A stretch of 64,000 nucleotides of DNA from Escherichia coli (GTDB lineage: Bacteria; Pseudomonadota; Gammaproteobacteria; Enterobacterales; Enterobacteriaceae), in NCBI RefSeq assembly GCF_003018235.1, contig NZ_CP027437.1. One strand, 5' to 3'. Positions 4,634-26,128 of this stretch are shown in pieces (position 1 is the stretch's first letter; each line of letters starts with the position of its first letter). Below the pieces are notes generated by a model. It ran no database searches. It was given only the letters and a program-made list of their open reading frames with translations, and was not told the origin of the DNA. The translations under genes and the position numbers were made by a program.

Positions 4634-5392
4634 TTAATCCGTACGCCGGGCAACAATAAACAGACGCGGAAATGCCAGCAGTATCTCTCCGTTCTCTTGC
4701 AGTGGATACTGCTCTTCCAGCATCTGATGGTAGCGCGTAAGAAAATGCTGCTGTTCGCTCTCGGTCAGATCCTGTAACCACGGACGTAATCCGGTGGCGG
4801 TCACCCAATCGATAATCGCCTGGTGCGACGGCATCTGGTGATAGTAGGTGGTTCGCCAGATATCGACCTCACATCCGGCTTCGCTCAAAATATCGTAGTA
4901 AGCATGAACGCCAGCCAGCGGCTCACGCCCGCGATCCGGGTAGTTTTGTTCCCAGGCAACTTCGCGCATGAGCACATGGGTCGGCTCTAGCCAGTTATCT
5001 GGCATCTGTACTGCCAACACACCCTGCGGATTAAGTAAAGAAACCAGATGAGGGAACAATTCGTAGTGGTCGGGCAGCCATTGCAGTGAGGCATTAGCAA
5101 AAATCAGATCGAGTGCCTGTTCCGGTTGCCAGTTGCGGATGTCTGCTTCCACGAACTGGCAGTCTGGCAAAGCACTGCGCGCTTCAGCAATCATCGCCGG
5201 AGACGAGTCGATGCCTGTTATCCTGGCCGCAGGCCAACGTTGATGCAGCAGGGCGGTGCTGTTACCTGGGCCACAGCCAAGATCGGCAACGTATTCGATA
5301 TTTTCCAGCGGCACTCTGGCAAGCAGCTCCACCGCCGGACGCGATCGTTCAGCGGCAAAGTGCAGATATAAAGAGGGGTTCCAGTCAGACAT
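4634..5392 (-). CDS. tam: Trans-aconitate 2-methyltransferase
   Basis: 252-aa ORF, SAM-MTase motif [10 protein letters not shown]; located directly downstream of lsrG on the same strand. Confidence 0.95.
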
Positions 5393-7698: not shown

Positions 7699-8691
7699 TT
7701 ATGGCAATGGGTTATTGGCCCGACGCGCCAGCCACTCTTTAATTTGCTGGCGATGCAGGCTAACGGAACGACCTACGACAACGACGATAAGTAGCGCACC
7801 GGAAAGGGCGCTGGACACCTGATTTGGCACTCCTGCCATTTGCAAACCTTGTTGCAAATATCCCACTAATAAAACCGCAATGGCGGTGCCGATAATGGAA
7901 CCAGAACCACCATAAATATTGGCACCGCCGAGCACTACGGCGGTGATGGCGGGCATCAGAAACGACGCACCGAGATCGGAACGTGCTGAACCAAAATACG
8001 ATACCAGCAGCACAGCGGCGACCGCAGACGCCAGCCCCGTCATGGCATAGAGCGCACATAAGGTGCGGTTAACTGGAATCGCGCTATAAACCGCCACACG
8101 CGGGCTTTGCCCAATTAAAAACACGTTACGTCCGGCATGGGTTTTATGCAGCCAGAGCCAGAAAACGAGGAGACATATCAGGAAGATAATCAGCGGAACG
8201 GGGAGTCCCAGTACATCCAGGTTAGCGAAATCTGTAAACGCCATCGGGAATCCACCAATACCTTCGTACCCCGTCGCTCCGGCCATCCCGGAAAGCAGCA
8301 GGGCGCTTCCGGCAAACAGATACAGCGTGCCAAGCGTAATCACCAGCGGGTTAACTTTGGTATAGATAATTAATCCGGCGTTGATCAGCCCGCACAATGC
8401 GCCGAGCAGTAAGGTCAGGAGAATCGCCAGCGGCATCGGCACACGACTTTGAAACAGTACGCCCAATGCAATGGCGCAGAGGCCGATAGTCGAACCAAAC
8501 GAAATATCGATCCCACCACTGACAATCACCATCGTCAGCGGTAGGGCGACAATGCCAATGCAGATAAAGTCACTGGTGCTGAACAGCAACATATTGAGAT
8601 CTAACATCCGCGGGTTAATTGCACCAAATGCTACAATCTCAATAACGAGCAGTGCGGCAAGAGCCAGTTCCCAACCGTAGCGAATACGCAT
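7699..8691 (-). CDS. lsrD: AI-2 ABC transporter permease
   Basis: 330-aa polytopic permease; 1-nt overlap with lsrC. Confidence 0.9.
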
Positions 8692-23296: not shown

Positions 23297-24100
23297 ATGA
23301 AAAGCGTACTTGCAGCAGCGGCTATGTCGCTTGTTATTTCTGATTTTGCTAATGCTGAGGAAACAAGAGGTAAAGCTATGATGAAAATAGAACCGTCAGC
23401 GATTTCGGAAGCTGATATTCGTTCCGTCTCACCGGCTCTCGCGCGCTTTGGTCGCGAAGCTATTACTGAAGATCTGTGGACACGCGACGCCCTCTCACCG
23501 AGGGATCGTAGTGTGGTGACCGTCGCCATGCTGATTGCCCGCAACCAGCCTGCCGAGCTTAAGCACTATATTGACGTCGCTCTCGATAGCGGCGTGACGC
23601 CAGCGGAATTATCAGAAATCATTACCCATCTGGCGTTCTACTCAGGTTGGCCAAATGCAATGTCAGCCGTCAGCGTGACCAAAGCAGTATTTGAAACTCG
23701 TGGCGTCACGCCAGATGCGCTTCCTGACGCTTCTCCGGACCTGCTTCCTCTCAATCAGGAAGCAGAAAAGCAGCGTTCAGAGACAGTGGAAAAAAATGTT
23801 GGCCCAATATCTCCAGGCCTGGTTAAATTCACTGCTGATCCACTCTTCCTGGATCTATGGCAAAGACCCGCGCTGAAACCCCGCGACAGAAGCCTGATTA
23901 CGGTCAGCGCCTTAATCGCATCCGGACAGAGCGCGCAGATTGGCTATCACCTCAATAGAGCAATGGATAATGGACTTTCTGTTGAGGAAGCTGGTGAGAT
24001 CGTTACCCAGGCCGCCTTCTATGCTGGCTGGCCAAACGCATTTACCGCTGCTCCGGTTGTGGGAGAGGTGCTAAACAATCGATCATCGAGTAAAAGGTAA
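23297..24100 (+). CDS. Secreted protein with two carboxymuconolactone-decarboxylase (CMD/AhpD-like) domains
   Basis: 267-aa ORF; signal peptide (MKSVLAAAAMSLVISDFANA|EE); internal duplication (...HLAFYSGWPNAMSAV... and ...QAAFYAGWPNAFTAA...). Confidence 0.7.
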   Translation: MKSVLAAAAMSLVISDFANAEETRGKAMMKIEPSAISEADIRSVSPALARFGREAITEDLWTRDALSPRDRSVVTVAMLIARNQPAELKHYIDVALDSGVTPAELSEIITHLAFYSGWPNAMSAVSVTKAVFETRGVTPDALPDASPDLLPLNQEAEKQRSETVEKNVGPISPGLVKFTADPLFLDLWQRPALKPRDRSLITVSALIASGQSAQIGYHLNRAMDNGLSVEEAGEIVTQAAFYAGWPNAFTAAPVVGEVLNNRSSSKR

Positions 24101-24149
24101 CATTACCGAACACTAAAACTTGACGCACATCACAACATTAGAACGAACA

Positions 24150-24234
24150 GTTCATGAACCAATAAGCGTAACATCGAGTGATTTATGGACAGCGTTTAAC
24201 ACAGTTATGAACCAAAACTGAGTTCATAACTGTG
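24150..24234. promoter_or_regulatory. Palindromic motif cluster: 10-bp palindrome GTTCATGAAC and a perfect 13-bp inverted repeat with 9-bp spacer
   Basis: GTTCATGAAC at 24150-24159; CACAGTTATGAAC (24200-24212) / GTTCATAACTGTG (24222-24234). No T-tract follows, so operator-like rather than terminator-like. Confidence 0.4.
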
Positions 24235-24514
24235 AGTTTGAATCGCCATTTGATTAATATCCATTTAAAACAGTTTGTTATGCTGTTTCTGGTGCTGAAG
24301 TCAATTATGTATATCCCTCAAACCCAGAATAGTTAAATGGAATTTGAGTGATGCGAAGCGATTTTCCAGTCGTCGTTATTACTTCAGGGTTCCAGAACAT
24401 AAAGCCTCTCCTCTTTCATGATTGGCCTGTGCATACCGGATATAGGCTGGCTGGTATGCAGGTTTGCCGTTTGCCGCATCTTCCCTGCGTTGAAGAGTCA
24501 GGCTGGCAAACCGC

Positions 24515-24769
24515 GTGCAAATGAACACCCCCACTTTCCATCAACACTTCAGACAGCTTGCGGGAATGAGTCCACTCCGGTATCAGAAATGGCTACGCCT
24601 CAATGAAGCCAGGCGACTGATGCTGAATGAACATTACGATGTCACCACTGCAGCCTATGCTGTCGGTTACGAAAGCTTATCCCATTTCAGTCGGGAATAT
24701 TCGCGGATGTTTGGAGAGTCACCTAAGAGAGATATTACCGGGTTAAGAAAGTCTGTCGGTCAGCTTTAA
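24515..24769 (+). pseudogene. C-terminal fragment of an AraC/XylS-family regulator (second HTH only)
   Basis: 84-aa ORF with the AraC signature region (...GYESLSHFSREYSRMFGESPKR); no ligand-binding domain or first HTH in any upstream frame. Confidence 0.6.
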
Positions 24770-25202
24770 TAAACCCTGCACTTATCTGTTTAGAGCAATT
24801 CCGTGTTAGTTACACCAGTCAAACATTAACCATAGCTAATGTTTTATAGCCATATAAACCATTGGCCGCTCTTGACCTTTCCTGACACTTCCCTTGTTCG
24901 CAATAATATTCTGTTTAGTCGCTGTTTATAAATAACATGCATAATGAAATCGTAATGTTATTTAGCGACATAAAATGTCTTTGCAAATACCCTCTACAAC
25001 AAGTGCTGCAATAAACTTGTTGTGATTAGGTGTCCTTGTAATTTAAAGATATTATCGTTCTTCGTGAAATGTAATAACCCTGGAAACTATATTCTCAGGG
25101 CAATATCCCATCAAGAATGATTCTTGTTTTATAAGCAATAACAGAATGACTTAATTGTTAACTTTCTTTATTCAGCTACTTAAATATAAATTTTGGAGAA
25201 TT

Positions 25203-25766
25203 ATGAAACTCAAACATGTCGGTATGATTGTCGTTTCTGTGTTGGCGATGTCGTCTGCTGCGGTAAGCGCAGCCGAGGGTGATGAATCAGTAACGACCAC
25301 TGTTAATGGCGGTGTTATTCATTTTAAAGGTGAAGTGGTAAATGCCGCTTGTGCGATTGATTCAGAATCAATGAACCAAACGGTTGAGCTGGGTCAGGTC
25401 CGTTCTTCTCGTCTGGCTAAAGCGGGTGACCTCAGCTCCGCCGTTGGCTTCAATATCAAGCTGAATGATTGTGATACCAATGTTTCCAGTAATGCAGCTG
25501 TTGCATTCCTGGGTACTACTGTCACCAGTAATGACGATACGTTAGCGCTGCAGAGTTCAGCGGCAGGCTCTGCCCAAAATGTCGGTATTCAAATTTTGGA
25601 CCGTACGGGTGAGGTATTAATACTTGATGGTGCCACTTTTAGCGCTAAAACTGACTTGATTGATGGCACGAATATACTGCCGTTCCAGGCTCGTTATATT
25701 GCTCTCGGGCAGTCAGTAGCTGGTACTGCAAACGCTGATGCGACCTTCAAAGTTCAATATCTATAA
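25203..25766 (+). CDS. Fimbrial major subunit (F9/Fml-type pilin)
   Basis: 187 aa from ATG 25203 (GGAG SD 4 nt upstream); signal peptide then pilin domain with a conserved Cys pair. Confidence 0.85.
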
Positions 25767-25807
25767 TTCAATCTTAAGGTGGCTATACGTCATCTGAAAT
25801 TGAAACA

Positions 25808-25836
25808 GGGTGTGTGTGGCATGGCTACGCACACCC
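25808..25836 (+). other. Intra-operon stem-loop between pilin and chaperone genes
   Basis: GGGTGTG(TG)-loop-(CG)CACACCC, 7-9 bp GC-rich stem, no T-tract. Confidence 0.4.
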
Positions 25837-26128
25837 GAGCAATTCACCAATGTTCATCTCATTATTAATGAGGAATAGTTTGTGTTTTGGAGCGGTATGA
25901 AAAAATCACATAATATCTAAACGATCAATAAACAACAGTAGTTAAACTTACTGTTATTTAAAATATTTACTTTGTAGCAAGGTTTTCCTATTAAAAGAGA
26001 ACCAACATTTATTACAAACGCATTAAGTCTGGAAACCCGGCGAGTCGCCAATGTATTAGCAACATTTACCGATTGTCTGATGTAACGGTTTCCCCGCTTA
26101 TCCTCTTAACACATGGAGAATGCATCAG

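Follow-up and report, generated by a model that had tools for sequence, protein, structure and literature searches.

What is a perfect inverted repeat doing beside a truncated AraC-type gene? In the window analysed here, a 64,000-nucleotide stretch of Escherichia coli DNA, two symmetric sequences, a 10-bp palindrome and a 13-bp inverted repeat, lie between the stop codon of a CMD gene (24100) and the start of an AraC-type gene fragment (about 24503-24515). An earlier note, made from the sequence alone, had taken them for operator-like elements and had proposed that they might be orphaned binding sites of the decayed regulatory system to which the AraC fragment belonged, or else sites for another dimeric regulator. 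Here we find that both lie within the end of a decayed mobile element, and we suggest that they probably once served the recombination of that element rather than the control of the neighboring gene.

The repeat and the palindrome are versions of one unit

Both features are present as first described, and the two arms of the repeat are complementary at all 13 positions (Table 1). What had been overlooked is that the palindrome and both arms are versions of a single unit, GTTCATGAAC. The 13-bp inverted repeat consists of two such units side by side (sites 2 and 3), each bearing a 4-bp outer extension, and one central base is missing from each: the left arm GTT-ATGAAC corresponds to GTT[C]ATGAAC, and the right arm GTTCAT-AAC corresponds to GTTCAT[G]AAC. 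Perfect 13-bp inverted repeats with spacers of 0-20 bp are expected only 0.025 times per 64 kb in Markov-1 simulations (at least one in 4 of 200), and the one further example that the window contains, at 20160-20198, is a hairpin, GC-rich and of terminator-like form.

Several familiar explanations for such a repeat were considered and rejected. The stem is AT-rich, with G-C pairs at 4 of 13 positions, no T-tract lies 3' of the repeat on either strand, and a consensus scan of 23900-24800 returned neither terminator-like nor promoter-like sites. As a result, we rejected an intrinsic (Rho-independent) terminator, and the earlier preference for an operator-like element over a terminator of this kind stands. 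A known RNA family was set aside when Rfam covariance models gave no match with E <= 1 across 23000-26000, and a dispersed repeat (REP, MITE or IS end) was dismissed on the basis of copy number, given that the repeat occurs at a median of one place per genome, and at most two, among 548 genomes. Nor did a search of the window for the core motif trace an operator network: further copies, sought as possible members of a regulon, amount to two isolated TTCATGAA 8-mers, roughly as many as chance would give.

Two rearrangement junctions, the products of independent events, abut site 1 exactly. One, between 24147 and 24148, is an IS3-family end in strain SW07091 (L004 ~4000), and the other, between 24159 and 24160, is a loss of homology in three IncF plasmids (L008 4434). 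These positions may be coincidental, or site 1 may be a fragile or targeted site. We dropped the IncF breakpoint as evidence of recombination at site 1 on recognizing that IS911 ends and an attB-like copy without an insertion are combined in this mosaic plasmid.

Table 1. Coordinates of the island borders, the right-end module and its sites (positions in the window unless a locus is named).
Feature	Position	Strand	Details
Left junction remnant	20449-20486	+	27-mer GTGCGTATAAGATATATTATGTTAAAT at 20449-20475; hexamer ATGGTG at 20476-20481; GGTTT from 20482
Surviving cargo	20486-24100	+	Amidohydrolase C-terminal fragment, NAD(P)H oxidoreductase, aldo/keto reductase, ABM monooxygenase, double-CMD-domain protein
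Right-end (3') module of the GInt-type island	24090-24338	+	35% GC, against 50% in the cargo
Site 1, intact palindrome GTTCATGAAC	24150-24159	.	Core TTCATGAA at 24151-24158, starting -188 bp from the terminus
Inverted repeat, left arm CACAGTTATGAAC	24200-24212		13/13 complementary to the right arm
Site 2, GTTATGAAC	24204-24212		Left arm minus its 4-bp outer extension
Spacer of the inverted repeat CAAAACTGA	24213-24221		9 nt
Inverted repeat, right arm GTTCATAACTGTG	24222-24234		13/13 complementary to the left arm
Site 3, GTTCATAAC	24222-24230		Right arm minus its 4-bp outer extension
Element terminus AACCCAGAATAGTTAAAT	24321-24338	+	Core-type end; block from 24296 likewise conserved
Variable 6 bp beside the terminus	24339-24344	.	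GGAATT in the window; CATGTC in K-12, KH_005 and SW07091
Chromosomal backbone, attB right arm TGAGTGATGCG...	24345-24434	+	Toward the yneL fragment (24503-24769); K-12 homology resumes at 24345
Motif copies at ginA start codons	L014 ~8440-8450; L013 ~11795; L024 ~818; L028 ~4323; L031 ~4319; L029 ~4315		In relatives

The repeat lies inside an island inserted between hipA and yneL

The window is E. coli chromosome and carries, in order, the lsr genes, an autotransporter gene, hipA, an island, yneL (an AraC-type pseudogene), the ydeT/S/R/Q fimbrial genes and ydeP. [quoted passage not shown] The yneL fragment is an 84-codon C-terminal piece of an AraC-type gene with an HTH_18/HTH_AraC domain match, and it is cut back identically in every E. 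coli examined, K-12 included. An intact AraC orthologue beside the repeat was found in none of the E. coli variants examined, all of which have the same truncated fragment.

Comparison of the empty site of K-12 with the occupied site of strain 1190 reveals that the island is a clean insertion between hipA and yneL. With slashes marking the hexamer at each junction, K-12 reads ...GGTGCGCATAATGTATATTATGTTAAAT/CATGTC/TGAGTGATGCG... from hipA to yneL, while strain 1190 reads ...TATGTTAAAT/ATGGTG/GGTTTGTTC... (longer read GGTTTGTTCTTAAGTTCATGTG) at the left junction and ...CCCAGAATAGTTAAAT/GGAATT/TGAGTGATGCG... at the right. The two junctions of strain 1190 are 7.5 kb apart, and its match to the window around the repeat is identical. 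The island is bordered by the imperfect direct repeats TATGTTAAAT and ATAGTTAAAT, and the K-12 site correspondingly reads ...TATGTTAAAT/CATGTC/TGAGTG. The right border is at 24338, which places the repeat 104 bp inside the island, and the same junction is used in many genomes. The hexamer at 24339-24344 is probably a crossover or footprint hexamer; six-nucleotide staggered cuts or 6-bp footprints are known for the elements called GInt, SE and Tn554, to which we return below. In island-free strains homology with the window resumes at 24345, past the module, and therefore the repeat is not part of the yneL locus.

The left part of the island is damaged in the window. An insertion of about 300 bp interrupts the 27-mer that precedes the left junction, and a deletion extends from 11 bp inside the left end to the amidohydrolase fragment. 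Accordingly, the junction remnant matches strain 1190 (L001 728-765), after which the window skips to L001 4437. The insertion (~20144-20448, within 20131-20475) lies between the two copies of an imperfect 13-bp direct repeat, GTGCGCATAATGT and GTGCGTATAAGAT, and holds the hairpin at 20160-20198. The 76 bp with which it opens resemble, in inverted orientation and with 79% similarity, a stretch (L024 1004-1080) of a Salmonella diarizonae GInt remnant. On the other side of the island, the segment 24435-24559, between the attB right arm and yneL, has no K-12 counterpart though both of its flanks align, and it is present in Ecol_881 and others.

The 27-mer, GTGCGCATAATGTATATTATGTTAAAT, stands directly left of a GInt left end in seven unrelated contexts in Enterobacterales and Vibrionaceae (loci: window 20449-20475; left junctions L013, L024, L025, L028, L029 and L031). 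It also stands alone, in K-12 (L012) among others: 5,423 of 5,426 E. coli genomes have it, at one copy each. In sequence it resembles the terminus of the module itself minus 15 bp. The 27-mer may be a long attB arm, a solo right-end relic or part of a mobile unit.

The module recurs at the ends of gin-bearing elements

The repeat is embedded in a module of about 250 bp that begins near the stop codon of the CMD gene and beyond which homology stops sharply after ...AATAGTTAAAT, as aligned in four unrelated contexts. Sensitive searches recovered copies that are 72-82% identical, limited to 24090-24338, in other settings. In strain KH_005 the module adjoins yneL behind different cargo, on large Klebsiella and Enterobacter plasmids it follows Hachiman and TIGR02391 genes, and in strain 730V1 it stands directly in front of two integrase genes. 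Every copy ends at ...TCCCTCAAACCCAGAATAGTTAAAT, and the sequence beyond is unrelated. No AraC gene is nearby on the Klebsiella plasmids or in Enterobacter, Tatumella, Pseudocitrobacter and K. grimontii.

The 3' end of the CMD gene accompanies a module of the window type in E. cloacae DSM 26481 (L016) and E. sichuanensis (L023), at different chromosomal sites. Its presence in two Enterobacter species indicates that cargo has moved between genera together with the module. The E. cloacae flank carries TTCATAAC at +21 past the terminus, but neither an intact gin operon nor large ORFs follow. On the Klebsiella plasmid (L007 ~5275-5290) and in K. grimontii (L027), a perfect palindrome resembling a LexA box, CTGTATATATATACAG, lies 6 bp past the terminus, and on the plasmid it stands upstream of three small hypothetical genes.

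These relatives identify the island. [quoted passage not shown] Their borders are imperfect repeats of 10-11 nt with 6-nt staggered cuts. In 730V1 the order is hipA, the 27-mer, a left end of the strain 1190 type, two integrases, an 845-aa protein, a 167-aa protein, 20 kb of cargo and the module. A second four-gene element (GInt-2) is inserted in tandem exactly at the module terminus, and its Gin proteins are 31-41% identical to those of the first (GInt-1). Pfam detects Phage_integrase domains in the paralogous GinA/B of GInt-2, and found no informative domains in the large and small Gin proteins. GInt-2 (L011 21902-36030) carries type I R-M cargo, and its right end is truncated, a deletion having taken everything from yneL up to and including the 5' portion of a TonB-dependent receptor gene beside pqqL; that end still has GTTCATGAAG and, 65 bp on, GTTTATGAAC.

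Other genomes likewise join the module to gin genes. ETEC4085 combines in one element a GInt left end, a gin operon disrupted by IS3, an intact ginD, defence cargo, a 93-bp fragment of the CMD 3' end and a module of the window type. A Klebsiella plasmid has a left end of the strain 1190 type, an IS5-riddled gin operon, cargo and then the module, and in Tatumella and Salmonella diarizonae gin remnants lie upstream of the terminus. Photobacterium marinum carries a complete 25.4-kb element with matching ends, and its Gin proteins share 65-76% identity with their E. coli counterparts; a gin operon with matching ends is also found in E. cloacae. Thus, elements that bear gin genes end distally in the module in 730V1, ETEC4085, P. 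marinum, Tatumella and the Klebsiella plasmid, and a left end of the window type stands ahead of ginA in 730V1, on the Klebsiella plasmid, and in Salmonella, E. cloacae and Photobacterium. In Photobacterium leiognathi (L031 35-1596) a hipB/hipA-like pair lies ~2.4 kb left of the GInt left junction, which recalls the neighboring position of hipA in E. coli. For an Aliivibrio salmonicida element whose GinD is 57% identical, no left junction was located within 420 bp upstream of ginA.

The window island is a decayed GInt-type element, sited at the hipA-yneL hotspot, from which the gin operon and almost the whole left end have been deleted. A tblastn search with eight Gin proteins found no Gin-like coding sequence in the window. 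Given the absent gin genes and the 11 bp of left end that remain, we regard it as a decayed derivative rather than a functional member of the class. Such remnants are common in E. coli: the module is present in about 548 genomes, and a near-complete left end with ginA in only about 90, such that gin-less remnants outnumber intact elements.

A palindrome array keeps its spacing from E. coli to Vibrionaceae

The terminus 18-mer was used as the query on species-representative genomes, so that the repeat itself was not selected for. Exact copies stand at element ends, with unrelated flanks, in 10 gammaproteobacterial species, seven of Enterobacterales and three of Vibrionaceae. The scan also returned three chance hits in unrelated, non-proteobacterial phyla, and these have no TTCATGAA sites. 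In Photobacterium, Vibrio sp. and Providencia alignment to the E. coli module is confined to the terminus, yet the pattern of sites recurs there, and judging from these comparisons the repeat is part of the inserted island and not of the yneL backbone.

Sites of the TTCATGAA type start at -188, -135 and -117 from the terminus in E. coli, and perfect copies start at -189, -136 and -117 in Photobacterium and at -189, -137 and -118 in Vibrio. With Klebsiella included, the three-site spacing is kept in four genera (-188/-189, -135/-137 and -117/-118), while the DNA between the sites cannot be aligned. The outermost site is a perfect TTCATGAA in the right ends of all four, and sites 1 and 2 are 52-53 bp apart throughout, or about five helical turns. 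Providencia has four sites, of which the proximal two are 19 bp apart, the same pair spacing. At the shared terminus of Vibrio bivalvicida and Salmonella diarizonae the array is absent.

The Vibrionaceae elements also contain undeleted equivalents of the repeat at the same distance from the terminus. In Photobacterium this is GTTCATGAAC-N9-GTTCATGAGC with the spacer TAAATATAG, and in Vibrio it is TTCATGAACC-N7-GGTTCATGAA with the spacer AAATTTC. The inner half-sites, TGAAC-N9-GTTCA, are spaced identically in the window, Photobacterium and Vibrio. Among three enterobacterial module lineages, moreover, the invariant columns number 10/10 in site 1, 9/9 in site 2 and 8/9 in site 3. This total of 27/28 compares with a background of 56% and with 39-40% for the DNA between sites, and only 13 of 20,000 random block sets were as conserved. 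The Klebsiella copy has an alternative but again complementary outer pairing, TGCAC/GTGCA.

The same motif occurs in left ends. TTCATGA(A/G) is found at +21 from the junction in seven elements (E. coli GInt-1 and GInt-2, the Klebsiella plasmid, Salmonella, E. cloacae, P. marinum and P. leiognathi). GInt-1 and GInt-2 share this site despite Gin proteins that are 31-41% identical, and the P. leiognathi element has it although its GinD is only 60% identical. Strain 1190, which lacks gin genes, retains about 50 bp of left end beside a right end that is intact, and its +21 site has degenerated to TTCATGTG. In every element of the lineage, those of E. coli, Klebsiella, E. cloacae and Salmonella and both from Photobacterium, the start codon of ginA lies within a further copy, in the variants AAGTTCATGGCA, TTCATGAC and TTCATGGA; this placement suggests autoregulation on the part of the protein that reads the sites.

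A probable role in recombination

By analogy with phage attachment sites, we propose that the repeat and the palindrome are probably accessory sites for gin-encoded recombination proteins at the right end of a GInt, orphaned in this chromosome. The three palindromic sites, with the consensus GTTCATGAAC and at fixed distances from the 18-bp terminus, would bind one or more gin-encoded proteins, and their palindromic form suggests a dimeric reader. Candidate binders are the small auxiliary GinD, the non-catalytic recombinase-fold protein GinC, or the N-terminal domains of GinA/GinB. Together with the left-end site at +21 bp, the right-end sites would assemble a nucleoprotein complex that joins the two ends for attL x attR recombination and for integration, much like the arm-type or accessory sites of phage attP. 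The comparisons above establish what the island is and where it ends, and how its sites are conserved and arranged; the binding of Gin proteins and a need for the sites in recombination are what we infer from this likeness. With the gin operon gone, the sites in the window would be relics whose cognate protein is no longer encoded nearby. The earlier idea of an orphaned site thus survives in part: the site does appear to be an orphan, but the system that it lost is the island's own ginABCD module and not AraC.

Published work on GInts bears on this proposal. A functional mini-GInt required 481 nt from the 3' end, and none of the four gin genes was dispensable; as a counterpoint, the Pseudomonas GInts used in experiments differ in their att core, CGTA-AGAGCC. 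Among the Gin proteins GinD is conserved best, and an AlphaFold model (pLDDT 76) predicts it to be all-helical, with a three-helix N-terminal bundle and a 40-residue helix. A sequence search of the PDB and a Foldseek search with the model returned no significant match for GinD (best Foldseek E about 2).

Adjacent copies of a palindrome always form an inverted repeat, and for this reason a hairpin cannot be told apart from a pair of duplex sites by sequence alone. Complementarity of the arms may itself matter, as is suggested by the symmetric loss of one base from each of sites 2 and 3 and by the alternative outer pairing in Klebsiella. One rival explanation is therefore a structural hairpin, either an RNA stem that ends or stabilizes cargo transcripts or a DNA hairpin or cruciform recognized in recombination, as the folded single strand of integron attC is. 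The predicted RNA stem is strong (-19.2 kcal/mol, z = -5.6, with a similar value for the other strand), the bases lost from sites 2 and 3 would have paired with each other, so that the arms remain perfectly complementary, and the differing outer stem of Klebsiella stays complementary too. Single-stranded intermediates were also formerly proposed for the related SE elements, although these were later shown to be double-stranded. The Klebsiella stem, however, folds no better than shuffled sequence (z = -0.98), and quasipalindrome-templated correction could produce symmetric changes without selection. The U/T tract, terminator-like call and Rfam match are all absent, as reported above. Furthermore, the adjacent cargo gene is divergent in Klebsiella and 730V1, where the repeat is consequently not at a 3' end, and the motif is also conserved in single copies (site 1 and the +21 site of left ends), from which no useful hairpin could fold. 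We regard a hairpin as quite unlikely. Slightly less so, but still unlikely, is an operator through which a gin-encoded protein such as GinD, or a host repressor, would chiefly control the gin operon or outward transcription rather than build a recombination complex. Short palindromes are typical of dimeric repressors, the motif copies on ginA start codons would fit, and transcription across GInt ends has been reported. The right-end sites, in contrast, lie 20-27 kb from ginA when the element is integrated, no promoter-like site is predicted in the module, and a fixed distance to the terminus suits a role at the end. The two roles are compatible, and one protein may do both.

The remaining explanations fare worse. 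It is very improbable that the sites are a chance occurrence or a neutral relic devoid of sequence-specific function. The E. coli island is young and nearly clonal, and conservation among copies that are 93-100% identical proves little; but the low expected number of perfect 13-bp repeats per 64 kb (~0.025), the retention of site position and sequence where flanking DNA has diverged beyond alignment, and the significantly greater conservation of site columns than of the rest of the module all speak against chance. Least credible of all is an orphaned operator of the truncated AraC-family yneL, or of the LysR regulator encoded in the island. The repeat lies 270 bp upstream of the AraC fragment, its dyad symmetry fits a dimeric regulator, and TGAAC-N9-GTTCA loosely resembles the interrupted dyads of LysR-type regulators. 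Nevertheless, K-12, Ecol_881 and other island-free strains keep the yneL fragment and lack the module, and the module accompanies unrelated cargo on plasmids and in Vibrionaceae where there is neither an AraC gene nor this LysR gene. Recurrence of TTCATGAA elsewhere in the island and window, at about the level of chance, likewise speaks against such an operator.

More tentatively, the TTCATGAA array, the terminus, and the left-end and ginA sites could together form a previously unrecognized cis-acting code of a widespread Enterobacterales/Vibrionaceae GInt lineage, read by one gin protein, most plausibly as a dimer of GinD, that would synapse the ends and autoregulate the operon. We hold this to be a serious possibility and not an expectation. 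If true, it would offer a first handle on why GInts need four proteins, and would explain how gin-less islands with intact ends could be mobilized in trans.

Implications

For annotation, the repeat is best treated as the fossil border of an island, and an AraC-pseudogene operator should not be recorded at this position. Both the element class, of which the island is a degraded member, and the hotspot are known, and the core of its lineage, ...TAGTTAAAT, is not among the published examples. The site array appears to be undescribed, in that no description was found in a literature search that was not exhaustive. GInts carry defence systems, resistance genes and virulence clusters, and their right ends were hard to delimit for the original authors, who reported that 3' ends have no common feature (PMC5385486). 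The conserved terminus and site array, which extend from E. coli to Photobacterium, constitute a signature for such ends and permit the recognition of gin-less remnants. The conserved architecture of the array is also a testable detail useful to specialists in mobile elements, and it yields a testable hypothesis on what the auxiliary Gin proteins bind.

Comparison with known systems

The closest match is to the GInt (Tn6571-type) elements of the Tn554 family. Relatives of the window island share with them a four-gene operon that includes two RHRY-type integrases, cargo of defence or metabolic genes, an AT-rich 3' end, imperfect direct border repeats, a variable junction hexamer and site-specific insertion. 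The window copy itself retains cargo (20486-24100) followed by a 3' module of 35% GC against 50% in the cargo, along with direct-repeat borders at one specific junction for which K-12 provides the empty site. It differs in having no gin genes and only 11 bp of left end. Its lineage differs in its core, …TAGTTAAAT as opposed to the CGTA-AGAGCC of the studied Pseudomonas elements, and in possessing the conserved terminus and three-site array. The published att sequences of Pseudomonas and other GInts contain neither a GTTAAAT core nor the TTCATGAA motif, and we therefore consider the window lineage to be a different one.

[quoted passage not shown] The SE gene order, intA-tfp-intB-srap, is unlike the order of integrase, integrase, large protein and small protein in the relatives, and SE ends are imperfect terminal inverted repeats of 13-19 bp, not subterminal palindrome arrays (PMC10214605). 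We rejected an SE on finding that the relatives have the GInt gene order and a large protein that is not annotated as an integrase.

The repeat also recalls loxP and FRT, in which 13-bp inverted repeats flank an 8-bp spacer: its perfect 13-bp arms surround a 9-bp spacer, and it belongs to an element run by tyrosine recombinases. Unlike those sites, it lies 104 bp from the junction, its arms are two self-palindromic 10-mers that also occur singly, and no indication of crossover was seen at 24200-24234. A likeness in layout is found in the att arm sites of phages and ICEs, such as the Int arm, Xis, IHF and Fis sites of lambda attP, where short repeated sites occupy both arms at distances of tens to about 190 bp from the crossover. 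In the GInt lineage the motif is likewise present in both arms at conserved distances, in right ends of four genera and at +21 in the left ends of seven elements. The lambda arm sites are non-palindromic and bound by the N-terminal domain of Int, whereas the unit described here is a palindrome with a putative dimeric binder. The fixed spacing is nonetheless common to both systems, and the combined attachment site of the GInt lineage, at about 330 bp, is comparable in size to lambda attP.
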